Of a stretch of DNA of 64,000 nucleotides, positions 2 through 59,329 are shown piece by piece. Positions within the stretch are counted from its first letter, which is position 1; each line of letters opens with the position of its first letter. The DNA is from Candidatus Daviesbacteria bacterium (GTDB taxonomy: Bacteria > Patescibacteriota > Microgenomatia > Daviesbacterales > UBA10151), in assembly GCA_028715175.1 (NCBI GenBank), contig JAQUSJ010000001.1, forward strand, positions 148,356 through 212,355, in the 5' to 3' direction. The position numbers were made by a program, and so were the translations under genes. The notes beneath the pieces are model-generated. The model worked only from the letters and a program-made list of their open reading frames with translations. It was not told the DNA's origin and did not search any database.

Positions 2-211
2 AGAGGCGGAGAGGGAAGACGGCCTTTTGGAGACAGACCCAGAAGTGGCGGGTTTGATAGACCAAGGTTTGGCGGAGGTGAAAGACGTCCGTTTGGCGGA
101 GAAAGACGAAGCAGTGGATTTAACAGAAGCGGGTCAGGTCGTAGCTCTGGTGGGTTTGATCGTGGAGGCGGTGGCAGGGATAGAGGCGGCCGAGGCGGAT
201 TTAACCGTTAA
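2..211 (+). CDS. 3' end of an upstream gene, entering from the left edge; RGG/FGG-repeat GC-rich tail (RGGEGRRPFGDRPRSGGFDRPRFGGGERRPFGG...GGRGGFNR*), reminiscent of DEAD-box RNA helicase or RNA-binding protein C-termini
   Basis: Translation of frame 2 is read directly and is open from position 2 to TAA at 209-211. RGG/FGG repeats resemble helicase tails, but no catalytic domain is in the window. Confidence 0.35.
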   Translation, partial: RGGEGRRPFGDRPRSGGFDRPRFGGGERRPFGGERRSSGFNRSGSGRSSGGFDRGGGGRDRGGRGGFNR

Positions 212-251: not shown

Positions 252-1289
252 ATGGAAAGTTCTGCCCGAACTATAATTGAAGAATTAAGAATCAAGATTA
301 CTCAAGCTAATCTTCCAAACGAAATCGAAGAAAAGCTGATTAATCTCTTGAAATTCAGCGGTCTGTCAATCGGTGGAGGAATGGAACTTGCAAGTTTGGT
401 TTCTTATATTGATTTTGTAATTTCACTGCCTTTTGGGAAATTATCACAGGATATTTTAGATATAAGCAGGACCAGGCAAATTCTGGACAAAAATCACTTT
501 GGTTTACAGTCTGTTAAAGATCGGGTTTTAGAATATCTTTCGGTTTTGATTTTACATAAAACTTCCGGACAAACAAATGATTTCCATGCTCCGATTTTAG
601 CTCTTATTGGTTTGGTTGGTACAGGCAAAACTTCCCTTGCATATTCCATTGCCGAAGCTTTGGGAAGACCCTTGATGAGGATTCCTTTTGGCGGTTTGGG
701 AGACCCGGCCAGCTTGCGCGGTACATCCAGGATCCGTCCGGATGCTGAACCAGGTCAAATTATGAAAGCTATAAGATCAGCCAAGGTTTCAAATCCTGTT
801 ATAGTTTTGGATGAGATAGACCGGGTGGCGGAGGAGTACAAAGTAGATATTATGGGGGTTTTAGTAGAACTTCTTGATCCGGCGCAAAATCAGGCTTTTT
901 TGGATCATTATTTGGATTTTCCATATGATTTATCACAAGTTTTATTTATTGCGACTGCCAATAATACCGGAAATATTGCCACAGCAGTATTGGATAGACT
1001 TGAACCAATTACGATGCCTGCTTATTCAGATGAGGAAAAACTAACCATCGGACGGAATTACCTTTTACCGAAAGCGATTAAAGAAGCGGGATTGGATGAA
1101 AGGTTGCTTTCCATTGATGAGGCGGTGTGGCCGCAAATACTTCGTCCTCTTGGTTTTGATTCCGGGATTCGGTCGTTGTCCCGTTCTTTGCAGGCAATCT
1201 GCCGGAAAGTTGCCAGGAAAAAAGTAGAAGGGGAAACCGGACCGTTTAGAATCTCTCAGGAAAATTTAGGGGAGTTTTTATCAGGATGA
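252..1289 (+). CDS. Lon-type AAA+ ATPase module only (no N-terminal substrate domain, no S16 peptidase domain)
   Basis: Walker A GLVGTGKTS, Walker B VIVLDEIDR, sensor-1 FIATANN, Arg finger VLDRLEP and sensor-2 GIRSLSR are collinear with the Lon A-domain. The ORF ends where the Lon protease linker would begin. The stop overlaps the RNase J start (ATGA). Confidence 0.7.
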   Translation: MESSARTIIEELRIKITQANLPNEIEEKLINLLKFSGLSIGGGMELASLVSYIDFVISLPFGKLSQDILDISRTRQILDKNHFGLQSVKDRVLEYLSVLILHKTSGQTNDFHAPILALIGLVGTGKTSLAYSIAEALGRPLMRIPFGGLGDPASLRGTSRIRPDAEPGQIMKAIRSAKVSNPVIVLDEIDRVAEEYKVDIMGVLVELLDPAQNQAFLDHYLDFPYDLSQVLFIATANNTGNIATAVLDRLEPITMPAYSDEEKLTIGRNYLLPKAIKEAGLDERLLSIDEAVWPQILRPLGFDSGIRSLSRSLQAICRKVARKKVEGETGPFRISQENLGEFLSG

Positions 1290-5886: not shown

Positions 5887-6525
5887 ATGAGAACTGCTGG
5901 ACAGATTTTAAAAGAAGAAAGAGAAAGAAAATTTTATACTCTGGACGAGATTGAGAAAGCTACAAAGATTAGAAAAGAACTGTTAGAGGCGTTAGAAGCA
6001 GGTCAGTATTCAAAACTTCCTCCGCAAACTTTTGTTCAGGGTTTTATTAAAAATTACGGTAAATTCCTGGGACTTAGTCAGGATAAATTATTGGCAATAT
6101 ATAGGAGAGAGTTTTCTGAATCGAAACATCCTCCCCGGATTTTGGATTCATTTAAAGAGCCTATTGAAAAGAAAAAATTTAAGCTTACACCGGCAAGAGC
6201 TTTGGGAAGCGTGGTTTTAGGTCTTATTATTATTTTTTTTGTCTATCTTTGGATCCAATATAGATTTTTGGTAGGAGGACCATTTTTGGAGGTAAGCCAA
6301 CCGGTTAACCAGTTTAATACAACTTCTCCGGCAGTGCAGGTTACGGGTAGAACGGATCCGGAGGCGAAAGTAAGCATTAACAATCAAGAAGTTGGGGTAG
6401 ATACCTCCGGAAGATTCTCGCAAGAGATTAAGCTGACTGATAATATAAGCAATATAGAAATTAGCGCTAAATCAAAAAGCGGCCAAGTCACAAAAATCGA
6501 AAGAACGGTTTTTTTGAAAAAATGA
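5887..6525 (+). CDS. RodZ-like HTH (XRE-type) membrane protein
   Basis: N-terminal HTH as in the RodZ family (TLDEIEKATKIRKELLEALEAG...FVQGFIKNY) followed by a TM helix. Confidence 0.55.
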   Translation: MRTAGQILKEERERKFYTLDEIEKATKIRKELLEALEAGQYSKLPPQTFVQGFIKNYGKFLGLSQDKLLAIYRREFSESKHPPRILDSFKEPIEKKKFKLTPARALGSVVLGLIIIFFVYLWIQYRFLVGGPFLEVSQPVNQFNTTSPAVQVTGRTDPEAKVSINNQEVGVDTSGRFSQEIKLTDNISNIEISAKSKSGQVTKIERTVFLKK

Positions 6526-6624
6526 CCCCGATTTATTGTGGGTTATCCTGAGCAATTAGCGACCGCGTGCCGCCATAGCTTTAGCGGTGGCGCAAGGATC
6601 TATTATTATGTTAAACTTAAGCTC

Positions 6625-6915
6625 ATGGATTATTTACAAATTGCTTTAATTTTTTTGATTTTGCTACTGTCCATTTTCCTGGCCATTACCGGTATTCAGG
6701 TATTTTTTATTTTACGGGATCTGAAGAAAGCTCTGGATAAATTTAATGCAATTTTGCAAACAGGTGAGGACTTGGCGGAAGATATTGAAAGGCCGATGGC
6801 AGCTGCCAGCAGTCTGGCAACTAGCACAGGAGCAGCGGTTGTTTCAGGTGCAGCTAAGGTGCTGGAAAAAATCATCAAACCCAAACCAAAAAGATTTTAC
6901 AAAAAGGTTCTTTAA
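6625..6915 (+). CDS. Small membrane protein, DUF948-like (start moved to the internal ATG at 6625)
   Basis: TM helix ALIFLILLLSIFLAITGIQVFFIL followed by a coiled/Ala-rich tail. The upstream part of the listed ORF lacks coding character. Confidence 0.4.
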   Translation: MDYLQIALIFLILLLSIFLAITGIQVFFILRDLKKALDKFNAILQTGEDLAEDIERPMAAASSLATSTGAAVVSGAAKVLEKIIKPKPKRFYKKVL

Positions 6916-6919
6916 TATT

Positions 6920-7141
6920 TTATATAAATTTTTCCAGCTCTTTTCTGGTCATGCCAGCCTGCTTAAGGATGCTAGTGAATGTACCAATAGCTATTTCTTT
7001 ATGATTTGGAACAATGACAGTAAAATGCTTATTTCCTTGTCTTTTAAAGAGTTTAATATGGCTTCCTCTTTGACTGATAACGCAAAATCCTGCCCTTTGC
7101 AAGGCTGAAAGTATGATGCGGGCAGAGTATAGCTTAGGCAT
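6920..7141 (-). CDS. hicA: Type II toxin HicA (mRNA interferase, YcfA-like)
   Basis: 73 aa. The motif GSHIKLFKRQGNKHFTVIVPNHKEIAIGTFTSILKQAGMT matches HicA family topology. Confidence 0.8.
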   Translation of the reverse strand: MPKLYSARIILSALQRAGFCVISQRGSHIKLFKRQGNKHFTVIVPNHKEIAIGTFTSILKQAGMTRKELEKFI

Positions 7142-7349
7142 TAATTTGGATGGATAAATCCTGAAGTCTTGGTTTACTTACTGGTGTTAGTTCAATATTA
7201 GATTGGTCTTCAAAGTATAATTCAAGAGCCTCTTTTAAATTGTCCAAAGCTTCTGTGTGGGTTTTGCCTTGACTAGTTACTTCTATCTCTAGAGCTTTGG
7301 CAACATACCATTTATCTTCTTTCCATACTACAGAATGAATTCTTTTCAT
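7134..7349 (-). CDS. hicB: Antitoxin HicB (UPF0150)
   Basis: Start moved to the internal Met (MKRIHSVVWKEDKWYVAKALEIEVTSQGKTHTEALDNLKEALELYFED). Overlaps hicA by 8 nt. Confidence 0.7.
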   Translation of the reverse strand: MKRIHSVVWKEDKWYVAKALEIEVTSQGKTHTEALDNLKEALELYFEDQSNIELTPVSKPRLQDLSIQINA

Positions 7350-7421
7350 AGGTGTATTATACCATTTACTTGATAGAGGTTTATGCTTCGTTTGGAGGAT
7401 AATAAGTGTTAAAATACCAAC

Positions 7422-9305
7422 ATGACATCTCAAGAATTAAGAGCAAAATTTTTAAAATTTTTTGAAAAGAATGATCACAAAATTATTCCTTCTGCCTCTT
7501 TGGTACCCTCGGAAGAAGAACAGCTTGAGGGTAAGGAAAAAGTTTTATTTACCAGCGCCGGAATGCAACCCTTGATCCCCTATCTTATAGGACAAAAAGA
7601 GCCTCCTAGTAAAAGATTGGCCAATGTCCAAAAGTGCTTAAGGACAGACGATATTGAAAAAGTGGGAGATGCAGTTCATCATACTTTTTTTGAGATGTTA
7701 GGTAATTGGTCCATAGGTGATTATTGGAAAGAAGAAGCAATCAGATTGTCTTTTGAATTTCTAACACAAGAATTAGGAATACCTATAGAAAAACTTGCTA
7801 TTTCTGTTTTCGCTGGTGATGAGGATGCGCCAAAAGACGAGGAGTCGGCTCAAATATGGAAGAGTTTAGGGATTTCTGAGAAAAGAATATTTTACTTTGG
7901 TAAAAATCATAATTGGTGGCCTACAGGTGAAAAATCAGGTCTGTGCGGTCCTGATACAGAAATGTTTTATTGGATAGGTGGTGGTAAACCAGAAGGTAAA
8001 CCTAATGAAGATTCACGATGGGTGGAAATTTGGAATGATGTTTTCATGCAGTTTAATAGAAAAGAAGACGGTACTTTAGAAGATTTGCCTCAAAAAAATG
8101 TGGATACAGGAATGGGTTTAGAAAGAATACTGGCTGTATTAAATGGAAAAGAAAGCGACTATGAAACAGATTTATTTTTACCAATTATAAAGGTAGCGGA
8201 AGAACAACTATTAATAAAATTTAAATATGGAGAGGACAAACGAGTAGATCGCGCTTTTAAAATAATAGCTGATCATATAAAGGCAGTAGTTTTTTTGATT
8301 AATGAAGATATAGAACCTAGCAATAAAGATCGAGGATATATCTTAAGAAGATTGATAAGGCGAACGCTGACGCAAAACCATTTATGGGGTGATATAAATT
8401 CTTCTATATCGTTGTTAGTCAATAGTGTCATTGAGATTTATAAGAATAAATATAGTGATCTTGCCAGGAATACTCAACACATAAAAGATGTTATCAAACA
8501 AGAAGAAATAGGTGCGAATAAAGCAGTGAATGCTGCAATGACTGTGTGGAGAAAGTGGGTTGAAGAAGAACATAGAGGAGGTTTTGGAAGTCAGCCATTT
8601 GGAACGGCGACTTTTGGTTCTGGTGGGTACCTTCCTCCTGTATCGGCAGAAAAGATGTTTGATCTTTATCAATCATATGGATTACATCCTGAAATCATGG
8701 AAGAAATTACTCAAGGACAATTTGATAGGACAGGTTTCGACAAGCTATTTTTTGAACATCAAAAAAGATCTAGAGCTGGATTAATACAAAAATTCGCTGG
8801 GGGATTAGCAGGACATTCAGAGACGGAGATCAAATATCACACTGCCACTCATCTTTTGCATCAGGCCTTGCGGGATGTTTTGGGGCCGGAGGTTTTTCAA
8901 AAAGGTTCCAATATCACAGCTGAAAGGCTCAGATTTGATTTTTCCTATCCAGAGAAATTAACAGATGAACAAATTAAAAAAGTTGAAGATTTAGTTAACC
9001 AAAAAATAGCAGAAGATTTGGAAGTTACATCAGAAGTAATGAGTAAAGAAGAAGCATTAAAATCCGGAGCTTTGGGATTTTTCAATGAGAAATACGGGGA
9101 CAAGGTTAAAGTTTACACAATAGGTAGCCCTTCGACCTTTCGGCCTCGCTCAGGGCTGGCAAGCTCAAAATCTCCCTTTTCAAGGGAGATTTGCGGTGGG
9201 CCGCATGTTGAGCGTACCGGAGTAATAGGAAAAATTCAGATAATAAAAGAAGAAGCAGTATCTTCCGGCATACGTCGAATTAGGGCGGAAATTGTGTTAA
9301 GATAA
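7422..9305 (+). CDS. alaS: Alanine--tRNA ligase, short form (catalytic, tRNA-binding and editing domains; no C-Ala domain)
   Basis: N-terminal class II AlaRS motifs. Editing-domain metal motifs HTATHLLHQAL and CGGPHV. 627 aa. Confidence 0.9.
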   Translation: MTSQELRAKFLKFFEKNDHKIIPSASLVPSEEEQLEGKEKVLFTSAGMQPLIPYLIGQKEPPSKRLANVQKCLRTDDIEKVGDAVHHTFFEMLGNWSIGDYWKEEAIRLSFEFLTQELGIPIEKLAISVFAGDEDAPKDEESAQIWKSLGISEKRIFYFGKNHNWWPTGEKSGLCGPDTEMFYWIGGGKPEGKPNEDSRWVEIWNDVFMQFNRKEDGTLEDLPQKNVDTGMGLERILAVLNGKESDYETDLFLPIIKVAEEQLLIKFKYGEDKRVDRAFKIIADHIKAVVFLINEDIEPSNKDRGYILRRLIRRTLTQNHLWGDINSSISLLVNSVIEIYKNKYSDLARNTQHIKDVIKQEEIGANKAVNAAMTVWRKWVEEEHRGGFGSQPFGTATFGSGGYLPPVSAEKMFDLYQSYGLHPEIMEEITQGQFDRTGFDKLFFEHQKRSRAGLIQKFAGGLAGHSETEIKYHTATHLLHQALRDVLGPEVFQKGSNITAERLRFDFSYPEKLTDEQIKKVEDLVNQKIAEDLEVTSEVMSKEEALKSGALGFFNEKYGDKVKVYTIGSPSTFRPRSGLASSKSPFSREICGGPHVERTGVIGKIQIIKEEAVSSGIRRIRAEIVLR

Positions 9306-9311
9306 TTTAAA

Positions 9312-11522
9312 ATGAGCTTTCTAAGTAACCTCGCTAATCTATTACCAATTGGTAAAAAAGAAGAAACGAAGGAATATTTTTTTGCGCTTAATATCGGAAC
9401 GGAAACTTTGACGGCCGCTCTTTGGGTTATTGAAGGTTTAAACTTAAAAATTTTAGAAACAGCTTCAGATAATTACTCTTCGAATGATGATATTGCGACT
9501 GTTACGGATAAACTTTTGGATGCTGTCTTAGGCTTAAAAGAGGTTGAACCCCAAAAAATTCTCTTTGGTGTACCAAATTCCTGGATTGCGGATGAAAATC
9601 TAAAAGACGAGTATTTAAAGATTCTTAAAAGTTTAGTGAAAGAATTGGAACTGGTTCCAATGGCATACGTCGCTACAAGTCATGCCTTAATTCATTTCTT
9701 GGAGAAACAAGAAGGTGTTCCGACAACTGCCATACTGGTTGGTTTTGAGAAGCAACATCTAACCGTAATTGTGGTTCGGGCAGGGAAACTTGATGGTGTA
9801 AGAGTTATAGCGAGAGGAGAAACTGCCGGTTCGGATATAGAAAAAGCGCTACTTGCATTCACGGATGTGGAGACCTTACCTTCTAAGATTTTAATTTATG
9901 GGGAGCAAACTGAAAATTTAAAAAGCCAACTATTGTCTTTTTCCTGGATGTCAAAACTTTCTTTCCTGCATCTTCCCAAAATAGATGTTTTGGGAGACGA
10001 TGCTCCGATTAAAAGTGTTTGTTTGGCCGGAGGATCGGAGATAAACAGTGATATTAAATTTACCGAGCAGCATATTCAGAAGTCCCCTGTCAAATCGACC
10101 TTGATTGATACCGGTGAGGAAGAGATCAAGAACAAGATTGAGGTGGATGATTCTGCTGCCCAAGAAAATTTCGGATTTGTTGTCGGGGATGTTTCGAATC
10201 AGAAAAAATCAGCCCCGATTGAATCTGGGTTAAAGAGTCAAGAGACCGGTGAGTCAGAAGAACTTGTGGTTTCGCAAGAGCATGCTTTAGAAGTTGAAGA
10301 TTTTGAGCAAGAAATGCCCGTAACAAGCGAATCTCCAAAAGAAATACATAAAGAAAAATTTAATCTCAAACGATTTATCCCAAAGCAAAATTTTACAACT
10401 ATGACTATAATTATCGGGGTAATTCTGGCACTGGTTTTGATTGGGGGCGCTTATGTTTTTCTACCAAAAGCAAACATGAAGATTTTTGTAGAACCGAAGA
10501 TTGTAGAACGGGATACCCAAGTTGTGGCTGATCCAAATCAAAAAACCGTTAACGAAGACGGGAAAATCATTCCGGGACAGATTATCGAGACGGAGGTATC
10601 CGGATCGGCAAAAGACAGTGCTTCCGGTAAAAGACAGATTGGCGATCCGGCAAAAGGGACGATTGTGCTTTACAATAAAACTTTAGATTCCATCTCTTTG
10701 AGTAAGGGAACACAAGTTAGTAAAGGGAGTATAAAATTTACACTGGATACCAGTGTAACAATTGCCTCATCGTCCGCCAGTGATACCGGAATTGCTTTTG
10801 GTAAAGTTAATACTACAGTTACAGCAGTAGCAGTCGGAGCTGACGGAAATATTTCATCAGGTGCGGATATAACGGTTGCGGGATATTCATCGGATAAATT
10901 AACGGCAAAATCAGAAGGTAATTTTTCCGGAGGAACCTCTAAGGATGTAACTGTTGTTTCAAGTGAGGATACTCAGCGACTTCTGGCCAAGTTATCTTCG
11001 GATTTAAGGCAACAAGCTCAACAGAAATTACAGGAGAAATATCCTAACAAGAAAATTCTGGAAGAAGCGCTGTCGGAACAAATTACCAGTAAAAGCTATA
11101 ACAAAAATGTTAATGATCAGGCAAGTGAATTTTCGCTAAATATGACCATTCGTTATAAAGGTACGGCGTTTGATGATAATGATCTTAAATCAATTGTTTC
11201 AAAGTTAGTAAATATGCAAGTGCCTGATGGTTTTAAGCTTGATATTTCGGCAACCGAAACCCAGGCAGATGTTTCTAAGCTGGAAAAGGACGGGAAGTTG
11301 ATATTTTTAGCAAGGTTTAAGGCAAAATTAATACCCAAGATCGATATGGATAAAATTAAAGATAAGATTAAATTTAAGAGTTACTCTGAAGCTACGAACA
11401 TTATTAAAGAAATGGAGAATGTTTTGGGTTCCGAAATTAATATAACTCCTGCTTTACCGAAAGCGATTCAACGACTGCCAATACTTTCAAAAAATATCAC
11501 GATTGAGGTGGGACTTAAATGA
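9312..11522 (+). CDS. Membrane protein with an N-terminal FtsA/PilM-like actin-fold domain, one TM helix and a large extracytoplasmic C-terminal domain
   Basis: FALNIGTETLTAALWVIEG actin-fold start. TM helix IIIGVILALVLIGGAYVFL at about aa 365. Ser/Thr/Gly-rich external region. Confidence 0.5.
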   Translation: MSFLSNLANLLPIGKKEETKEYFFALNIGTETLTAALWVIEGLNLKILETASDNYSSNDDIATVTDKLLDAVLGLKEVEPQKILFGVPNSWIADENLKDEYLKILKSLVKELELVPMAYVATSHALIHFLEKQEGVPTTAILVGFEKQHLTVIVVRAGKLDGVRVIARGETAGSDIEKALLAFTDVETLPSKILIYGEQTENLKSQLLSFSWMSKLSFLHLPKIDVLGDDAPIKSVCLAGGSEINSDIKFTEQHIQKSPVKSTLIDTGEEEIKNKIEVDDSAAQENFGFVVGDVSNQKKSAPIESGLKSQETGESEELVVSQEHALEVEDFEQEMPVTSESPKEIHKEKFNLKRFIPKQNFTTMTIIIGVILALVLIGGAYVFLPKANMKIFVEPKIVERDTQVVADPNQKTVNEDGKIIPGQIIETEVSGSAKDSASGKRQIGDPAKGTIVLYNKTLDSISLSKGTQVSKGSIKFTLDTSVTIASSSASDTGIAFGKVNTTVTAVAVGADGNISSGADITVAGYSSDKLTAKSEGNFSGGTSKDVTVVSSEDTQRLLAKLSSDLRQQAQQKLQEKYPNKKILEEALSEQITSKSYNKNVNDQASEFSLNMTIRYKGTAFDDNDLKSIVSKLVNMQVPDGFKLDISATETQADVSKLEKDGKLIFLARFKAKLIPKIDMDKIKDKIKFKSYSEATNIIKEMENVLGSEINITPALPKAIQRLPILSKNITIEVGLK

Positions 11523-12175
11523 TTGCTACCCTCCGCCGGTCCCAGGGGAAACTCATTTCAAGTCTATTTTTATCAGTCGGAATCTTTCTTTTGATACAAG
11601 TTATTGCACCACTTGTATCGTTTGAGGTATGGGCGATTGGACAGAAAATAAATAGCCGGACTTTGGTTAGTCCTGTTAAATCAAGCGAGCAAATTCCAGG
11701 TGTTTCAGTGCAAGATCGGAATAATTTTCCTGCTTTTATTTCTTCTTTGAAGAGGGAGACTCAACCCAATTATGATCGGTTTAGCTTGTCTATTCCAAAA
11801 TTAAAGATCGAAAGACAAGATGTTTTAGTTGATACGAATTATCTCTCGGAGAACCTGGCTCATCTGTCGGGATCTGCTTTGCCGGGCGAGAAAGGTAATG
11901 TATTTATTTCCGGCCATTCTGCACTAAGTCAATTTTCCGTTATAAAAAGTGTCCCTTTTTCAAAACTACCTGAATTAAAAAAGGGCGATCAAATTATTGT
12001 TGAAACTTCCGGGTCAGAGTTTATCTATGAAGTTTCCGATTTTAAAGTTGTTGATCCGACAGATTTATCCGTTGTAGAAGCACCGGAAACTCAAGGTAGA
12101 TACATTTCTTTGATGACTTGTGTACCACCAGGTTTAAACCTAAAGCGACTGGTTGTTTTAGGGAAAATGATATAA
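11519..12175 (+). CDS. Sortase family transpeptidase
   Basis: N-terminal TM anchor, catalytic His (FISGHSA), Cys (LMTCVPPG) and Arg (KRLVV). Confidence 0.75.
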   Translation: MIATLRRSQGKLISSLFLSVGIFLLIQVIAPLVSFEVWAIGQKINSRTLVSPVKSSEQIPGVSVQDRNNFPAFISSLKRETQPNYDRFSLSIPKLKIERQDVLVDTNYLSENLAHLSGSALPGEKGNVFISGHSALSQFSVIKSVPFSKLPELKKGDQIIVETSGSEFIYEVSDFKVVDPTDLSVVEAPETQGRYISLMTCVPPGLNLKRLVVLGKMI

Positions 12176-12285
12176 TGGAGTAGCTCGTTACGTACAAAAT
12201 ATGCTAACTTGCTGACTCGTCGATGCACAAAGCCAGCTTACTTGCGACTTCGCTGCTCCTTATAGATTTATAATCACTAGCAGAA

Positions 12286-12310
12286 AACCCCGCTTTCTTA
12301 AAGCGGGGAT
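12286..12310 (+). terminator. Rho-independent terminator-like hairpin (ccccgctttcttaaagcgggg) after the sortase gene
   Basis: Perfect 8-bp GC stem with a 5-nt loop; the downstream T tract is weak. Confidence 0.4.
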
Positions 12311-12430
12311 GAATGCTAAAGTGATTACAGTCTTCCGCGGAAAGTTCGGTGGAATAAGCAAGGTAGGGTTTTCTGCTGTTCTTGTAAACTTGAAAGGAGA
12401 AAACCGCGGATTTTCAGTCCGCGGAAGTTT

Positions 12431-12808
12431 ATGAAGTATCTTGGAATAGATTTTGGAATGAAAAGAATAGGATTGGCAATTTCAGAAGGCGAGCTTGCTT
12501 CTCCGTGGCAGATTTTAGAAGTTAAAGGTTTCTCCGAGACGATAGAAAAAATTTCACAAATTATTGAAAATGGACAATTTCAAAAAATAATTGTAGGATT
12601 ACCTGAGGGGAAAATGGGGCAAAACGTGAGAGGCTTTGTTAAGGCTTTAAACAAAATGGGGATTGAGATAGAAACTATGGATGAAACGTTATCCAGCAAA
12701 AAGGCGCTGCAGGCTATGATTGAGCAAGGTATTGGTGTAAAAAAGCGCCGAAACGAAGATGCTTTTTCAGCTGCAGAAATTTTGCAGGATTATTTGGATA
12801 ATCTATGA
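12431..12808 (+). CDS. ruvX: Putative pre-16S rRNA nuclease / Holliday junction resolvase-like YqgF
   Basis: LGIDFGMKRIGLAISEGELASPW RNase H-fold start; 125 aa. Confidence 0.8.
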   Translation: MKYLGIDFGMKRIGLAISEGELASPWQILEVKGFSETIEKISQIIENGQFQKIIVGLPEGKMGQNVRGFVKALNKMGIEIETMDETLSSKKALQAMIEQGIGVKKRRNEDAFSAAEILQDYLDNL

Positions 12809-13785
12809 GAAAAAAAACCAATAATATAACTTTTATAATCATAATAACTTTTATAATTGTTATAGTGATTTGTGGTTGGTGGAATAGCCAGCTTGTTCCG
12901 GTTTCTTCTGATAAATCTACTAAAGTTTTTGTTATAGCTAAAGGAGTTGGTGTATCGGATATTGCAAAAAAGTTAAAAGAAGAAAATTTGATTAAATCCG
13001 AACTGGTTTTTAAGATTTATATTAAACAAAACAACTTCACTAATAAACTTCAAGCAGGTTCATATAAACTCTCTCCTTCAATGTCTGTACAAGAATTGGT
13101 AAAAAATTTACAAATCGGCAGTGAAGATGTCTGGGTTACGTTAATAGAAGGTTGGCGGCTTGAGGAAATGGCAGATAAGCTAAATGAGCAGTTAAAGATT
13201 GATAAGAAGCAGTTTCTAAAGAGTGCAAAAGAGGGTTATATGTTTCCTGATACATATCTTTTTCCCAAAGAAGCAACAGTAGAGTATGTAACTGATACTT
13301 TGAGAAAAACTTTTGATACTCGTTTAAACTCGGAACTGCGGTCTAAAATCCGTTCTCAGGGATTAACAGAAGAGCAGGGAGTAATTTTGGCGTCAATAGT
13401 TGAAAGAGAAGCCAGATCTGATAAAGCAAGGATGGAAGTTGCCAGTATTTTACTAAAAAGATTTAAGATCGGTATGGGGTTAAATGCTGATGCAACTGTA
13501 CAATATGCTTTGGTTCCAAAGGGATCAGAAAACGCGCCGGCTGACGGATGGTGGAAAAGAAATTTAACTAAAGATGATCTGAAGATAGATTCTCCGTATA
13601 ATACTTATTTGCATTCTGGTTTACCTCCAACCCCAATTTGCAATCCCGGACTTGCATCTTTACAAGCCGTTGCCAATGTCGACCCTTCGACTCCTTATCT
13701 TTATTATTATCATGATTCAAAAGGGGTATCCCATTATGCTAAAACTTTGGAAGAACACAATCAAAACGTAGTCAATTATCCATAA
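12805..13785 (+). CDS. mltG: Endolytic murein transglycosylase MltG (YceG)
   Basis: N-terminal TM helix, YceG-like domain, LPPTPICNPG motif; conserved ruvX-mltG adjacency. Confidence 0.8.
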   Translation: MRKKTNNITFIIIITFIIVIVICGWWNSQLVPVSSDKSTKVFVIAKGVGVSDIAKKLKEENLIKSELVFKIYIKQNNFTNKLQAGSYKLSPSMSVQELVKNLQIGSEDVWVTLIEGWRLEEMADKLNEQLKIDKKQFLKSAKEGYMFPDTYLFPKEATVEYVTDTLRKTFDTRLNSELRSKIRSQGLTEEQGVILASIVEREARSDKARMEVASILLKRFKIGMGLNADATVQYALVPKGSENAPADGWWKRNLTKDDLKIDSPYNTYLHSGLPPTPICNPGLASLQAVANVDPSTPYLYYYHDSKGVSHYAKTLEEHNQNVVNYP

Positions 13786-52633: not shown

Positions 52634-53545
52634 ATGACTAGAGTTTTAAATTCCTTTAAAGTCCGAGCAGGTAATAAAACCTTTGATTATCGTTCAGGAA
52701 AGAAATTAAATCTTAATCAGGTAAAGCTATTTTTTCAAAAAAATTATCAGGTAAAAAAACTGTGGAATGGAAACAGGCATGTTTTGGGAATTTTAACCAA
52801 GAGCGATGTAGGCTATTTCCTGAAATTGTCAACTAGCGAAGGAATTAGTGCCGTTACAAAAAATGAATATAAATGGAATGATTATTTCTGTAAATATACA
52901 GAAGTGAGTAATTACTTTGTCCCCAAAAATCATGATAGAGGTTATTATCAAAAGAAATATTTTTATTTAATCACAGATTATTTTGACGGTAAATTAATTT
53001 GTGAAATCAATGGGGATGTTAATAATCTGGTTACACATATTGATGATATTATTTTACTTTCCGAGTTAATACAAAAAATGCCCGTAGTTGAAAGTGATTA
53101 CAGAATGCGATTTATCAACAAAGTAAATAGCTGGTTTAACGATATTCCAAGTAGTATTTGCAAGAGGTATAAAATTAAAACTCTTTTGGATATTGCTGAA
53201 AAGGGAGTAGATGGATTATCCAGCAAGCCTAGACATGGGGATTTTACGCCCTGGCATATTATTAAGTTGTCTGATCATAGGCTTGGACTGATTGATGGAG
53301 AGCATTTTTTACCGGACGGTGTTGAAAGTTATGATATTTGCTATTTTATACAGAGAGTTTTTAGCGTTTTGAAAAATCCTGATATTGCCAGAAAGATTTA
53401 TGCCGAACTTATAAAAAAAGGATATAGCAAAGATAAATTAAAAGTTGTTTTGGCTGCCAGGGCAATTGGAGGATTTTTGGATGAGTCATTAAAAGATAAA
53501 CCAAATTATACATTTGCCAATAATTTTAAAAATTGGGTAATTTAG
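52634..53545 (+). CDS. Phosphotransferase (APH/choline-kinase-like) family protein
   Basis: Brenner-type catalytic motif HGDFTPWHII and GLIDGEH (IDWE-like) motif; protein kinase-like fold inferred. Confidence 0.5.
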   Translation: MTRVLNSFKVRAGNKTFDYRSGKKLNLNQVKLFFQKNYQVKKLWNGNRHVLGILTKSDVGYFLKLSTSEGISAVTKNEYKWNDYFCKYTEVSNYFVPKNHDRGYYQKKYFYLITDYFDGKLICEINGDVNNLVTHIDDIILLSELIQKMPVVESDYRMRFINKVNSWFNDIPSSICKRYKIKTLLDIAEKGVDGLSSKPRHGDFTPWHIIKLSDHRLGLIDGEHFLPDGVESYDICYFIQRVFSVLKNPDIARKIYAELIKKGYSKDKLKVVLAARAIGGFLDESLKDKPNYTFANNFKNWVI

Positions 53546-53550
53546 CTTAA

Positions 53551-54780
53551 TTAGAAGGGATTTTTTGAAAGGTTAGTCATGAAGAATAGTTTAACAAGGT
53601 CTCTTGGGACGGGCAGTCCTGTCAGGAAAGGGAAAATTAAAATAAAGCTAAGTATTATTAAAAATAGAAGTAAGATAACTAACTTCCATCCTTTTTCATC
53701 ATTAAGCAGTGTATTCAGTTGGTGTCCTAAGGCAAGAGATAAAAAAGGTACGGAAGGGCTGAAGTGGTATAAAAACATAATTCTGGGAGAGGTCGCCCAA
53801 GGTAACCAAAAAGCAAGAAACCCTAAAAGAACTATCATTAAATGTATGGATCTTTTTTTAACTGCTTCCCAAGTGGTTGCTAAAATAGCAATACTTCCCG
53901 TCCAGAAAACCAAAGGATTTCCTGAAGCAAAGATATTGGCGATGGAGTTTTTTTGATAATCCACAAAATACCAGACAGGATATAAATTTAGCGGCCACGA
54001 CCACCAGAGTGAAGAATAAGGATGAGTAGCTTCCAGGTGAGTTTGGTACCACCAGATTTGGTTGTGTAGCTCAATAAAATCATTCCAGTTGTAACCCATT
54101 AAAAAATAATGGGTATAACTTAAAAAATAGACAGCTGGAGGAATTAAGAAGAAATAGATTAGTTTTTTATACTGGCGATGATATAACATAATTGGAAAAA
54201 ACATTAATACTAAAAAGATTCCGGGCCATTTAGTAGCCATGGCTACTCCCATAAAAAGAGCTGCAATAATATATCTTTTTTGGACGAAGAAAATAATACT
54301 TGCTAAAATAAAGGCTACCAAATAGACATCGTTCATGCCGATCCTGGATTGAACAAAAACCAGCCCATCAAGAGAGAAAATTAGAGTAGATAAAAGAGCT
54401 GTTGTTTCATTTTTAAATAAGATTAACGCAAGTTTGTATACCAAAAATACCGATAAGATTCCCAGTAAGGCTCCCGGCAGTCTGTAAGCCCAAGCATCAG
54501 TGGTACGAAAGATAAACATTGATGCGGTCATTATTTCTTTCTCAACAGGAGGATGCAACCACTCAAAAGCGACTCCAGGAGGAGATTTGCCCCAAGGATT
54601 CCAGGCATCCCTATTTCCTTTTAAGTATTCTTTTGCGGTATATGCATGGTAAACTTCGTCAAATACATATTTGTTTGGATAATCTAGCCGGTATAAACGC
54701 AAAAATGCCGTTACTACTAGAATAATAATTAAAATATTTTTCGGTTTTAAAATTTTTTTAAGCATGAGATTTTTTATCAT
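53551..54780 (-). CDS. GT-C membrane glycosyltransferase, PMT/ArnT-like (GT39/GT83 family)
   Basis: Polytopic. First-loop motif YVFDEVYHAYTA (PMT/ArnT DE motif region). Confidence 0.65.
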   Translation of the reverse strand: MIKNLMLKKILKPKNILIIILVVTAFLRLYRLDYPNKYVFDEVYHAYTAKEYLKGNRDAWNPWGKSPPGVAFEWLHPPVEKEIMTASMFIFRTTDAWAYRLPGALLGILSVFLVYKLALILFKNETTALLSTLIFSLDGLVFVQSRIGMNDVYLVAFILASIIFFVQKRYIIAALFMGVAMATKWPGIFLVLMFFPIMLYHRQYKKLIYFFLIPPAVYFLSYTHYFLMGYNWNDFIELHNQIWWYQTHLEATHPYSSLWWSWPLNLYPVWYFVDYQKNSIANIFASGNPLVFWTGSIAILATTWEAVKKRSIHLMIVLLGFLAFWLPWATSPRIMFLYHFSPSVPFLSLALGHQLNTLLNDEKGWKLVILLLFLIILSFILIFPFLTGLPVPRDLVKLFFMTNLSKNPF

Positions 54781-56032
54781 TACTAAACTTGTAGTATACC
54801 AAGATTAATATCCCAAAACCGAGTAAATTAAGTACAGTAAACAAGTTGTAGTATTTGTTTAATAGTTGGTATATAGAAAATGAGGAAAATTCAGAATTTG
54901 GATATACATAATTATAAAAATAATAGACATACCAGAGGTTAATAAAATGAACTAAGGACAAAATTAGATAAATAATCTTCAATTTCATTGAATTAATTAA
55001 AAATGCTGTAATTAATAAAAATGGAAAAAAAGGAAATAGATAACGCTGATGGATTCTGGTAAGAAATAGAAAAAATGCAAAACTAGCTAAAGTTATAGCA
55101 AAATATACTATATAATTATTTTTGTATCCTTTTTTGAAAACTAAAGGAAAGAGTATAAGGATTAAAGATATTAAATAAATAATCATTCCCCAGCTTTGAT
55201 ATGTAAAACTTAAGAATTTAGTTGAGTCAGGAATCCACCATCCGACAAAAGACCAAAAATTATATGAAAACATTGAGGTGTAAGGGTAAGTACTCGTGCT
55301 TTTTTGAAATAGATGGAAAAGTCCAAAAATTGGGTCTTTTAAGAAAAACGGAAAAGAAAAAATAATCAAAAAAATGGGGATTAATAATAAACTAAGGCAT
55401 TTTGGATATTTGAAATTGGCTATAAAATTAATAAGTATTACCGGAAAAATTGCCAAGCCTTGAGGTTTAACTAATATCGATAGAGCTGTGGTAGTGCTAA
55501 AGCGGTATGTCTTTTTAAGTTCTAATAGACAATATACTAAGTAGACTAGAAAAAACGCCAAAATTCCATCTACTTGTCCCCAGACGGAAGAATTAAAAGC
55601 TAAAGCCGGATTGGCAAGATAGAAAGTTGCCGAAAGTAAACCTAAGTTTTTTTTGTAACTCGAAACAATTTTGTAAATATAATAAGCAGTTGCGATATCA
55701 AAGAGATTGGTGAAAAGTTTTAAATAAACCTCAAAACCAAAACCGAATACAGATAAATGTGGAAATAAAAATTTAAACGATGCACCTAAAAACCACAGCA
55801 TGTATAAGTATCCAGGAAAATAATCTGAAAAATAGTTAGGAGCATAAAAATGGATGGGAGTGACTTCAACTAATCTGGCGCTCCAAGCTTGCCAATCAGT
55901 CATATCGATTTTAAAAGAAGGTAGAAAAATTAAGGCTAATCTCAATAATATGGCTATAAAGAGAATAGATATATTTCTTTTATTTCTTTTCAAAATGCCC
56001 ACCTTCCTTGAGTATAGAGATATGTCAAGCAA
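54758..56032 (-). CDS. Polytopic membrane protein, probable GT-C glycosyltransferase
   Basis: About 11 TM helices, aromatic-rich loops; overlaps its neighbours by 23 and 43 nt, so probably operonic. Confidence 0.45.
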   Translation of the reverse strand: MLDISLYSRKVGILKRNKRNISILFIAILLRLALIFLPSFKIDMTDWQAWSARLVEVTPIHFYAPNYFSDYFPGYLYMLWFLGASFKFLFPHLSVFGFGFEVYLKLFTNLFDIATAYYIYKIVSSYKKNLGLLSATFYLANPALAFNSSVWGQVDGILAFFLVYLVYCLLELKKTYRFSTTTALSILVKPQGLAIFPVILINFIANFKYPKCLSLLLIPIFLIIFSFPFFLKDPIFGLFHLFQKSTSTYPYTSMFSYNFWSFVGWWIPDSTKFLSFTYQSWGMIIYLISLILILFPLVFKKGYKNNYIVYFAITLASFAFFLFLTRIHQRYLFPFFPFLLITAFLINSMKLKIIYLILSLVHFINLWYVYYFYNYVYPNSEFSSFSIYQLLNKYYNLFTVLNLLGFGILILVYYKFSNDKKSHA

Positions 56033-57054
56033 AAAAGTAGTGTAATAAAAATGGTACTAATCAAAGTCAAGACAATTTTGTTCTTAATTAAAGCTAACGT
56101 AATAAAGAAGGGGAAGAGAATTAGGGTATATCTGGGAGTGCTCATGATAAAACTAGTTGAGGTAAACAACAATAAGTTAAGAAGCATATATATTCCGTAA
56201 GACTTTCTAACACAGATATACACCAAGATGGTGGCAATAACTAAAAGAAAGATAGTAATTAGTTCCGCTAAAAACAAGTAGTAATAATCACCGGTTTGAT
56301 TTTGAAAGAAATTAATTAAATTTTGGATACTTATCCATGGCCAGGTAAGGTGTTTGTACCAATGAGACGACAAGACTTTAGAAAAATAAAAAGGGTTTTT
56401 AAAAGTTAGATAATTTATTAACAGATAAATGAAAAAACCCACAGGGATTAATATGAAAGCAATTAAATTTTTACCAACTGATTTTGTTTCTGTTAAAAGG
56501 ATCGGTAAAAGTAGAACTCCATTGATTCTTGTCATGCTGGCGAGAGCTCCAGCAAGACCAGATTGGATGATTTTTCCTTTCCTGAAAAAATATACTGTTG
56601 CTAAAGAAGTGGTTAAGAAAAGAGATTCCGTATAGGCAGATTGTAAAAAAAATGCAGTAGGAAAAATATTTAAAAACCAAACAGACAATAAGGCAACTCG
56701 TTTATTGAAATCAAGTAGAACCAGTTCATACAATAATATTGAGGCGAAAATCGAGAATATCCATGAAATAATGATGGCGCTTAAATTATAATTACCGATA
56801 AGGACGTTAAACGCCTTAATCAGTATAGGATAGAATGGATAAAAAACTATGAAAAGAGCTGGTTCTCCGATTGTTTGGTAGCCATGTTTTGCTATTTCAA
56901 TATAATGAGGGCCATCCCATCTAATCCAAGGATCAAATAAATTAATTAGGTGGGGGGTAAAAAAGAGAGGGATGCTAAATAATAGCAGCCTAACTAGAAT
57001 AGTTATAATAATAACTTCTTTCCATCTAATTAGCGCTTTGGTATTATTTCCCAT
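55990..57054 (-). CDS. GT-C mannosyltransferase-like membrane protein (PIG-V/GT76-like)
   Basis: WDGPHYIEIAKHGY motif in the first external loop, typical of PIG-V-like mannosyltransferases; polytopic. Confidence 0.5.
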   Translation of the reverse strand: MGNNTKALIRWKEVIIITILVRLLLFSIPLFFTPHLINLFDPWIRWDGPHYIEIAKHGYQTIGEPALFIVFYPFYPILIKAFNVLIGNYNLSAIIISWIFSIFASILLYELVLLDFNKRVALLSVWFLNIFPTAFFLQSAYTESLFLTTSLATVYFFRKGKIIQSGLAGALASMTRINGVLLLPILLTETKSVGKNLIAFILIPVGFFIYLLINYLTFKNPFYFSKVLSSHWYKHLTWPWISIQNLINFFQNQTGDYYYLFLAELITIFLLVIATILVYICVRKSYGIYMLLNLLLFTSTSFIMSTPRYTLILFPFFITLALIKNKIVLTLISTIFITLLFCLTYLYTQGRWAF

Positions 57055-59029: not shown

Positions 59030-59286
59030 ACGCCTAGGAAGAAGGATGATCGGTCGCCTTAGGCGACAGGAAAGTCCAGACAGCATAAAGCAGGGTGGTC
59101 CGATGTAAATCGGACACGGGTAACCGCTAGTTAGAGCAACAGTGACGAACCGAGGTCATGCTCGGGTGAAACGTGGCAATCCTCCCCGCTGCAATCCTAG
59201 AACCGACAGAGTTGCTTGCTCAATTGTTGAAATCAGGAGCATTAGATAAATGATCGTCTAAAAACAGAATCTGGCTTACTAGCTTC
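59030..59286 (+). ncRNA. rnpB: RNase P RNA (compact bacterial type)
   Basis: P1 gccuaggaag / cuuccuaggc (59032-59041 / 59273-59282). P4 strands GGAAAGUCCAGAC and ACAGAAUCUGGCUUA match the universal P4 consensus. AGCAGGGUGG and extended -10 tgTATAAT lie just upstream. Confidence 0.7.
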
Positions 59287-59329
59287 CTAGGCATTTTTCT
59301 TCTATTTTTCTCATTGTATACTTATATAA

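Follow-up and report, generated by a model that had tools for sequence, protein, structure and literature searches.

X736, a membrane protein of 736 residues from Candidatus Daviesbacteria (ultra-small bacteria of the Microgenomates, CPR), is a member of a large, uncharacterised family of single-pass membrane proteins of the Microgenomates. It very probably consists of a cytoplasmic actin-like domain, an acidic linker, one transmembrane (TM) helix and an outer domain that resembles Baseplate_J. Its gene overlaps that of a sortase, and together they suggest a cell-surface assembly module that has yet to be described. The whole stretch of DNA analysed, 64 kb in length, is referred to as the window.

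The preliminary description of this DNA had recorded a 736-aa protein and a sortase whose genes overlap by 4 nt, and both reading frames and the overlap were confirmed (Table 1). The sequence at ~11519 is GAGGTGGGACTTAAATGATTG, in which the ATG of the sortase (11519–11521) and the TGA of X736 (11520–11522) share the tetranucleotide ATGA. This overlap and a Shine-Dalgarno-like box inside the X736 gene predict translational coupling of the two genes. X736 is 100% identical to the NCBI entry 'hypothetical protein PHE48_00905 [Candidatus Daviesbacteria bacterium]' found in the homologue search. Synteny across 80 loci shows that alaS, ruvX and mltG form a conserved housekeeping block enclosing the pair, and Pfam scans and synteny place FtsK and a RodZ-like HTH_25 membrane protein in the same conserved neighbourhood. 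As described earlier, the pair is not adjacent to ftsZ: no FtsZ or FtsA was found among its neighbours or the other large ORFs scanned in the window, which included those outside the rpoBC/ribosomal-protein block.

Table 1. Features of the X736-sortase locus (positions within the window; residues are those of the respective protein)
Feature	Position	Strand	Basis or remarks
alaS	7422..9305	+	Pfam match; directly upstream of X736, gap of 6 nt
X736 gene (736-aa bitopic membrane protein)	9312..11522	+	ORF call, ATG start
ASKHA-fold domain, residues ~21-245 (~225 aa)	9372..10046	+	two beta-beta-beta-alpha-beta-alpha lobes; predicted cytoplasmic
GFVVGDV motif, residues 288-294	10173..10193	+	nearly invariant, inside the variable acidic linker
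TM helix, residues 364-384	10401..10463	+	sole hydrophobic segment of X736
Extracytoplasmic domain, residues 386-736 (351 aa)	10467..11519	+	beta-rich module, long helix, alpha/beta subdomains; confident predicted fold
Baseplate_J-like core, residues ~441-546	10632..10949	+	GDxAKG ... IGxxxNL ... FSGGTS
Shine-Dalgarno-like box of the sortase, GAGGTGGG	11505..11512	+	within the 3' end of X736, 6 nt before the ATG
Sortase gene (218 aa)	11519..12175	+	ORF call, ATG start
Sortase membrane anchor, residues ~12-36			hydrophobic segment
Sortase catalytic domain, residues 90-217
Sortase His133	11915-11917	+	catalytic triad
Sortase Cys201	12119-12121	+	catalytic triad
Sortase Arg210	12146-12148	+	catalytic triad
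ruvX	12431-12808		Pfam match; downstream of sortase
mltG	12805-13785		Pfam match; downstream of sortase

The X736 family stands well above chance, because 473 database proteins match the query and the best 120 of these do so at 60–100% identity across ~100% of its length. Counted in clusters at 50% identity, the family comprises 7,277 representatives at E≤1e-3 and 1,728 at E≤1e-30. The top 150 of these relatives are nearly all 700–820 aa long and span both domains, and the full-length architecture is kept over very many lineages. X736 is apparently single-copy, and among the matches that bear a taxon name the family appears to be confined to CPR. Gottesmanbacteria was the only further phylum named by the cluster look-up, and a second homologue search, run with a diverse profile, yielded Daviesbacteria proteins once more and did not widen the taxonomic range. 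Searches of X736 against Pfam and NCBIfam gave no family above cutoff, and phmmer against PDB sequences gave no match. Literature searches found no published description of the family, and the paper on the CPR 'Pam' pilus does not mention a sortase-linked, actin-fold or baseplate-like component.

The N-terminal domain has the two RNase-H-like lobes, each β-β-β-α-β-α-β, that characterise the ASKHA superfamily, so that the proposed actin/HSP70 fold was recovered, and PilM structures are among its significant fold matches. The earlier statement that the protein begins like FtsA or PilM (residues 24–42 are FALNIGTETLTAALWVIEG) holds at the level of the fold, but not of the sequence family: neither the N-domain of X736 nor 33 diverse N-domains gave any Pfam match, including to FtsA/SHS2_FTSA, PilM_2 and T2SSL. 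Across 76 diverse members, the AGGxE adenosine loop is the sole nucleotide-site motif retained. The DxGGG phosphate-2 motif is absent from all of them (X736 has ILVGFEK there), and the phosphate-1 acidic position is occupied by E in 27, N in 19, L in 10 and Q in 7 (N in X736). Judged by the alignment, the phosphate-binding motifs of the actin-like domain are degenerate. In searches of the PDB with the N-domain profile, FtsA was the only ASKHA protein with a sequence-level signal, albeit a weak one (E 0.055 and 0.092); matches to gp41 coiled coils were discarded as spurious. Aligned with E. coli FtsA by hhalign, the domain was in register at the phosphate-1 strand and scored P 0.0029, with a probability of 10.7% across 73 columns.

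The acidic linker (residues ~246–363) varies in length and sequence among relatives. Within it lies a motif, GFVxGDI in the family as a whole, whose G and F are each kept in 74 of the 76 diverse members and whose D is kept in 67. The single TM helix that had been placed near residue 365 was located there as the sole hydrophobic span, MTIIIGVILALVLIGGAYVFL (~residues 364–384; hydropathy scan window 358–376). Lysine and arginine are richer on the N-terminal side of this helix and there is no N-terminal signal peptide; an N-in/C-out topology is inferred.

Beyond the membrane, the preliminary description had seen a Ser/Thr/Gly-rich domain of ~370 aa. An external domain is indeed present, although it spans 351 aa, and its composition had been mildly overstated (S+T+G content of 25%, compared with 19% in the N-terminal part). 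It is predicted to be a compact fold rather than low complexity, and is among the best-conserved parts of X736, with 60–97% identity across Daviesbacteria and long invariant stretches. Its core fold is shared with solved baseplate wedge proteins, on which ~130–140 residues superpose. Pfam Baseplate_J (PF04865) aligns with residues 441–542 at E 0.004 and 16.9 bits, below the cutoff of 21.1, and the family profile matches diffocin TRI-2 at E 0.0014 (profile positions 446–546). One homologue (P0170) matches phrog_6, a baseplate wedge, at 1e-8. For several close homologues PF04865 is a precomputed assignment and 'baseplate J/gp47 family protein' the NCBI name; in others the PF04865 match is 'weak' or 'faint'. 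In fold and core sequence, the outer domain is closest to the baseplate wedge (Baseplate_J) proteins of phages, tailocins and eCIS. X736 itself was ruled out as a sortase substrate, its C-terminus being a β-strand of the fold without a hydrophobic tail.

The downstream protein is a sortase with a His-Cys-Arg triad, as had been described. It exceeds the cutoffs of Pfam PF04203 (1.3e-22, 80.3 bits against 26.6) and TIGR01076 (69.7 bits against 39.35), its triad coincides with the active-site residues in an alignment to solved class C sortases, and the same three residues show no variation among 62 sortases associated with the X736 family. All NCBIfam sortase class models scored below cutoff (71 for class C and 64.8 for class E, each against 160, and 55–59 for class D against 140–165). 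The sortase family is reported to be near ubiquitous in Microgenomates (PMC6744442). LPXTG-type substrates had been suggested as something to look for nearby. A search of C-termini by regex and hydropathy found no protein with an LPXTG-like motif, hydrophobic segment and basic tail among the ORFs of the window or of 80 related loci, and the PEGA/SH3 protein that adjoins the sortase in L089, the locus of a distant relative, has no sorting signal.

The pairing of the two genes recurs among relatives. A sortase lies ≤150 nt downstream of the X736 homologue in 55 of 74 Daviesbacteria-type loci, and the 4-nt ATGA overlap is found in 35 of the 74; this set was collected with a narrower family alignment, the diverse one being too divergent, and consists almost exclusively of Daviesbacteria loci. 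Among eight distant relatives (~30% identity), the sortase is the next gene in six and lies one gene off, past DsbB, in one. One of these six is L089, where the pair is still adjacent though alaS, ruvX and mltG are not nearby. Given the topology proposed above, the Baseplate_J-like domain and the sortase domain would be on the same, outer side of the membrane. X736 is likely to be functionally coupled to the sortase.

The favoured reading, given a little less than even odds, is that X736 is a bitopic scaffold that spans the envelope and works with the housekeeping sortase; a non-catalytic scaffold role is by itself somewhat more likely than not. X736 would then be a non-enzymatic scaffold across the envelope, whose pseudo-actin domain may serve for docking or self-association in the cytoplasm, in the manner of GspL, PilM or FtsA, and whose GFVxGDI motif may be a docking peptide. 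The Baseplate_J-like domain could oligomerise into a platform on the membrane's outer face; to our knowledge, no other role is known for this domain in baseplates. Such a platform might position or partner the co-translated housekeeping sortase, which would attach surface proteins or filaments to the wall, although a specific role of X736 in surface anchoring is doubtful. More speculatively, and with low probability, X736 and the sortase could be the membrane base of an unrecognised, Microgenomates-wide surface machine: a cellular, non-phage Baseplate_J domain that assembles on the outer face as a ring or platform, domesticated from a contractile-tail baseplate module for envelope or filament assembly, and controlled or positioned from the cytoplasm via the dead actin-fold domain and GFVxGDI.

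Alternatively, X736 could be a component of the divisome or elongasome, that is, an FtsA-like, membrane-tethered actin-fold protein whose outer domain contacts peptidoglycan or its synthases, with the adjacent sortase merely reflecting anchoring at the septum or growth zone. The FtsA signals are in keeping with this, as are FtsK, the RodZ-like protein and MltG in the conserved neighbourhood, and the strong conservation of the outer domain suits a cellular partner that is itself conserved, not a host receptor that varies. However, the FtsA signals are not significant, X736 lacks the SHS2/1C subdomain, the C-terminal amphipathic helix and adjacency to ftsZ or ftsQ, and alaS-ruvX-mltG is a widespread gene order and therefore not specific evidence. 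Moreover, the gene that remains next to X736 when the neighbourhood changes is the sortase, as in L089. A divisome or elongasome role is unlikely.

The same conservation bears on the idea that X736 serves an episymbiotic lifestyle as a host-contact receptor or transducer, whose outer domain binds a host surface structure, as phage baseplates do via fibres, and passes a signal to the pseudo-actin domain. A baseplate-derived outer module, a bitopic protein with a conserved cytoplasmic docking motif and an apparent restriction to CPR among taxon-named matches would all fit host contact. We nevertheless consider it quite improbable: host-range determinants are not conserved to the degree seen in this outer domain, Baseplate_J is a structural wedge protein rather than a receptor-binding protein, and the X736 gene sits within a housekeeping operon.

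GspL lacks a canonical ATP site and its actin-fold domain is a docking scaffold. X736 has the same topology (such an actin-fold domain, one TM helix and an outer domain), and the preliminary description had proposed a PilM-PilN-like fusion, which as a GspL-like assembly-platform protein would serve a type IV pilus or a type II secretion-like machine. The PilM fold matches agree with this, and CPR commonly have type IV pili (PMC6744442). The proposal is disfavoured by the outer domain, which is Baseplate_J-like and not a ferredoxin-like domain of the PilN/PilO/GspL/GspM type, by the lack of PilM_2 or T2SSL membership, and by gene content: no pilus or secretion ATPase or platform genes (PilB/C/N/O, GspE/F/M) were found in the scanned ORFs of the window or in the conserved neighbourhood. 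A PilM-PilN fusion is thus very unlikely.

Finally, a remnant prophage, tailocin or contractile-injection-system baseplate gene without a cellular role, as the NCBI name of some homologues and the resemblance in fold and profile to wedge proteins might imply, is effectively refuted by gene context and architecture: tail, sheath, tube and wedge genes are absent nearby, 80 loci have X736 between alaS and ruvX, a tblastn search of 50,697 phage records with the outer domain gave no match, baseplate proteins have neither a TM helix nor a cytoplasmic ASKHA domain, and the full-length architecture persists across lineages.

A large part of the diversity of bacteria belongs to the CPR/Patescibacteria, in which the majority of conserved envelope proteins lack a known function. 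The X736 family is highly conserved, encoded in a core operon and tied to a sortase reported as near ubiquitous in Microgenomates. If the sortase-linked scaffold is correct, CPR sortases would gain their first proposed accessory factor, X736 would be a case of a phage-baseplate domain recruited into a cellular membrane protein, and the actin fold would have a new, non-catalytic use in a membrane scaffold beyond pilus, secretion and division systems. The database label 'baseplate J/gp47 family protein' is corrected as well, since its implication of a prophage gene is wrong.

Among known systems, X736 shares with FtsA the ASKHA fold, membrane association and a first β-hairpin that is weakly similar in register (ALNIGTE in X736, LEIGTAK in E. 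coli). Its N-domain, however, has ~225 aa compared with ~420 aa, too short to include the 1C (SHS2) and 2B subdomains, its phosphate motifs are degenerate, and a TM helix and the 351-aa outer domain take the place of the amphipathic helix. Its neighbours in 80 loci are alaS, the sortase, ruvX and mltG rather than ftsZ or ftsQ. From GspL and PilM-PilN it differs in the size and type of the outer domain (351 aa and Baseplate_J-like, in place of a small ferredoxin-like domain), in having no sequence-family match and in having a sortase as its partner gene. Unlike the Baseplate_J wedge proteins P2 gpJ, Mu gp47, T4 gp6, diffocin TRI-2/CD1371 and Pvc11/Afp11, X736 is cellular, encoded in a housekeeping operon, membrane-anchored and fused to a cytoplasmic domain, and lacks neighbouring wedge, hub, sheath or tube genes as partners. 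The Daviesbacteria sortase resembles the housekeeping and pilus sortases of Gram-positive bacteria (classes A, C and E) in fold family, N-terminal anchor, His-Cys-Arg residues and TxxTC-type motif (LMTCVPPG). It differs from them in falling below every NCBIfam class cutoff (class C being the best), in lacking a C-terminal TM helix and adjacent pilin or LPXTG substrate genes, and in its constant pairing with an ASKHA/Baseplate_J membrane protein.

Both members of the gene pair, encoding the 736-residue bitopic membrane protein X736 and a 218-residue sortase, lie where the preliminary description had placed them (see table), and their genes do overlap by 4 nt, with start and stop codons shared as ATGA. 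A GAGGTGGG box is located 6 nt upstream of the sortase ATG, and the X736 gene starts 6 nt after the end of alaS. X736 carries the motif FALNIGTETLTAALWVIEG at residues 24–42 and a single hydrophobic helix at residues about 364–384, followed by 351 residues whose reported enrichment in Ser/Thr/Gly is mild (25%), a small excess over the 19% in the rest of the protein. The N-terminal half is assigned to the cytoplasm and the C-terminal half to the outside: the helix has a basic flank on its N-terminal side, X736 has no signal peptide, and all known ASKHA domains are cytoplasmic.

X736 matches, with 100% identity, a ‘hypothetical protein’ from a Candidatus Daviesbacteria MAG (CPR, Microgenomates), and its best 120 database matches share 60–100% identity along the full length. 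When 1.84 billion cluster representatives were searched with a family profile, 7,277 proteins were recovered at E≤1e-3, of which 1,728 reached E≤1e-30; nearly all of the best 150 matches are 700–820 aa long and span both halves of the profile, and this fixed full-length architecture across many members indicates a large family and rules out a chance fusion. One distant representative comes from Gottesmanbacteria, and unlabelled metagenomic sequences suggest a spread beyond Daviesbacteria and Gottesmanbacteria. Literature searches found no paper describing the family. A Daviesbacteria-type operon is also present, at 55–69% protein identity, in loci L002, L005, L006, L008 and many others from TPA metagenome-assembled genomes titled ‘uncultured Gammaproteobacteria bacterium’, titles that look taxonomically wrong.

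The N-terminal domain (residues ~21–245) has no Pfam or NCBIfam match, either in X736 or in 33 diverse homologues. The AlphaFold2 model of residues 1–255, of moderate confidence (pLDDT 64.7), contains a β-β-β-α-β-α-β pattern twice, and Foldseek matches it to Ppx/GppA (5e-8), CoaX, PilM (1.7e-6) and FtsA (6e-6). Model and matches support a predicted actin-like fold, so that the FtsA/PilM-like start described earlier holds at the level of the fold; membership of either family is not supported. FtsA is the sole sequence-level hint (E 0.055–0.09 for PDB FtsA; hhalign P 0.0029 and 10.7% probability against E. coli FtsA, with the first hairpin in register), and the PilM homologue HofM gave no sequence-level signal. 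Across 76 diverse family members, the residue at the phosphate-1 acidic position varies (E27/N19/L10/Q7), the phosphate-2 DxGGG motif was not found, and the AGGxE loop is the only nucleotide motif retained; the domain is probably non-catalytic. It is followed by an acidic linker of variable length (residues ~246–363), in which the motif G-F-V-x-G/D-D-I/V hardly varies: of 76 sequences, 74 keep the G, 74 the F and 67 the D. This motif may act as a short docking peptide.

The 218-residue protein is a bona fide sortase family member (Pfam Sortase 1.3e-22; TIGR01076 above cutoff) of unassigned class, since every class-specific NCBIfam model falls below cutoff; its best matches among solved structures are class C sortases. 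The proposed His-Cys-Arg triad was borne out by alignment of His133, Cys201 and Arg210 with the catalytic residues of solved class C enzymes, and is retained without exception in the 62 sortases associated with the X736 family. The membrane anchor is at the N-terminus, with none at the C-terminus. No protein combining an LPXTG-like motif, hydrophobic segment and basic tail was found in the 64-kb window, and the same search of ORFs in related loci gave no candidate substrate. X736 itself was rejected as a canonical sortase substrate because it lacks a C-terminal hydrophobic tail.

As a whole the window is a core housekeeping stretch, with genes for a Lon-like AAA protein, RNase J, FtsK, TsaC, a RodZ-like HTH_25 membrane protein, a small TM protein, AlaS, X736, the sortase, RuvX, MltG, riboflavin kinase, RpoB, translation factors, RecA and RNase Y. 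In searches covering the local neighbourhoods of X736 loci, the order FtsK-TsaC-RodZ-like-small TM-AlaS-X736-sortase-RuvX-MltG was found again in 80 related genome loci. Where downstream sequence was sufficient (74 loci), a sortase lies ≤150 nt downstream of the X736 homologue in 55, overlapping it by 4 nt in 35 of these, and 0.3–2.2 kb downstream in five; none was seen downstream in 14, eight of which have RuvX directly after the homologue. Of eight relatives of ~30% identity, six have the sortase as the next gene and a seventh has it one gene further on, past a DsbB; none was found near the eighth (L090). In locus L089 the upstream genes are unrelated and alaS is absent, and the pair is still adjacent, the strongest single argument that what is conserved as a unit is the pair and not the entire block.

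Coordinates of features, in the window unless another locus is named
Feature	Position	Strand	Details
RodZ-like protein	5887-6525		two genes upstream; HTH_25, TM helix, Glucodextran_B/Ig-like outer domain
Small TM protein	6538-6915		beside RodZ-like protein
HicA toxin, HicB-like antitoxin	6920-7433	-	HicA 73 aa, Pfam 5.7e-17; HicB-like 99 aa, DUF7387/UPF0150, upstream of HicA
X736	9312-11522	+	736 aa
Sortase	11519-12175	+	218 aa
Sortase-ruvX spacer	12176-12430		255 nt; G+C-rich hairpins about 12288-12308, 12404-12424
ORF	52634-53545		303 aa; weak PapG_N (adhesin carbohydrate-binding) match, E 8e-4, below cutoff
Three polytopic membrane proteins in a row	53551-57054	-	two match protein-O-mannosyltransferase/PMT-type glycosyltransferase families
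RNase P RNA match, bacterial class A	59034-59294		111 bits, just over gathering score 100
Variable neighbours, L081	5221-5649		envelope-related
Variable neighbours, L089	3833-4666		envelope-related
Variable neighbours, L090	5587-7460		envelope-related

The RodZ-like and small TM genes keep their position in nearly all related loci. The HicA/HicB-like pair sits between the small TM gene and alaS on the opposite strand; in related loci alaS is usually close behind the small TM gene. The sortase-ruvX spacer has no Rfam family match, and its hairpins resemble intrinsic terminators when read on the minus strand, where no gene precedes them; a similar gap is present in the 94%-identical L074, and ruvX abuts the sortase in most relatives. 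Sortase-ruvX-mltG is replaced downstream of the X736 homologue in L044, L049, L052 and L056. By sequence appearance, a large multi-TM, glycosyltransferase-like protein is present there in L044, L049 and L056 (absent in L052), and a putative secreted SGNH-type esterase lies downstream in L049, L052 and L056. Variable neighbours in distant relatives include a DsbB-like protein between X736 homologue and sortase, and a PEGA+SH3_3 protein with an MraY-type transferase past the sortase; PrgI/TraC-like conjugation genes occur near an X736 copy without a sortase. Elsewhere in the window, the two PMT-type matches point to a possible surface-glycosylation locus, the 303-residue ORF has no family assignment other than PapG_N, and the RNase P RNA match covers all 367 positions of the model within just 261 nt, which suggests a strongly reduced RNA.

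Alongside the established features of the system (its architecture, two folds, degenerate nucleotide motifs, linker motif, intact sortase and conserved pairing), a role may be proposed by analogy. GspL, PilM and FtsA are cytoplasmic docking scaffolds, so the N-terminal domain may likewise serve as a docking scaffold in the cytoplasm; gp6, gpJ and gp47 have a purely structural role as wedge proteins that oligomerise, and on that basis the Baseplate_J-like outer domain (residues 386–736) could serve as an oligomerising platform. Together these would make X736 a non-enzymatic trans-envelope scaffold, whose outer platform might cooperate with the co-translated sortase at the external membrane surface of a monoderm-like CPR cell.

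It is unlikely that X736 is instead a division or elongation factor, and a function as a host-contact transducer is more doubtful still. A pilus assembly platform, the PilM-PilN-like module envisaged in the preliminary description, is improbable: GspL and PilM-PilN are closest to X736 in topology, but tests specific to these families placed it outside them. A prophage remnant can be virtually dismissed, as this reading fails specific tests. The outer domain is a divergent relative of Baseplate_J in a non-phage setting. As a putative scaffold, X736 would belong with the actin-fold bitopic scaffolds, a known kind.
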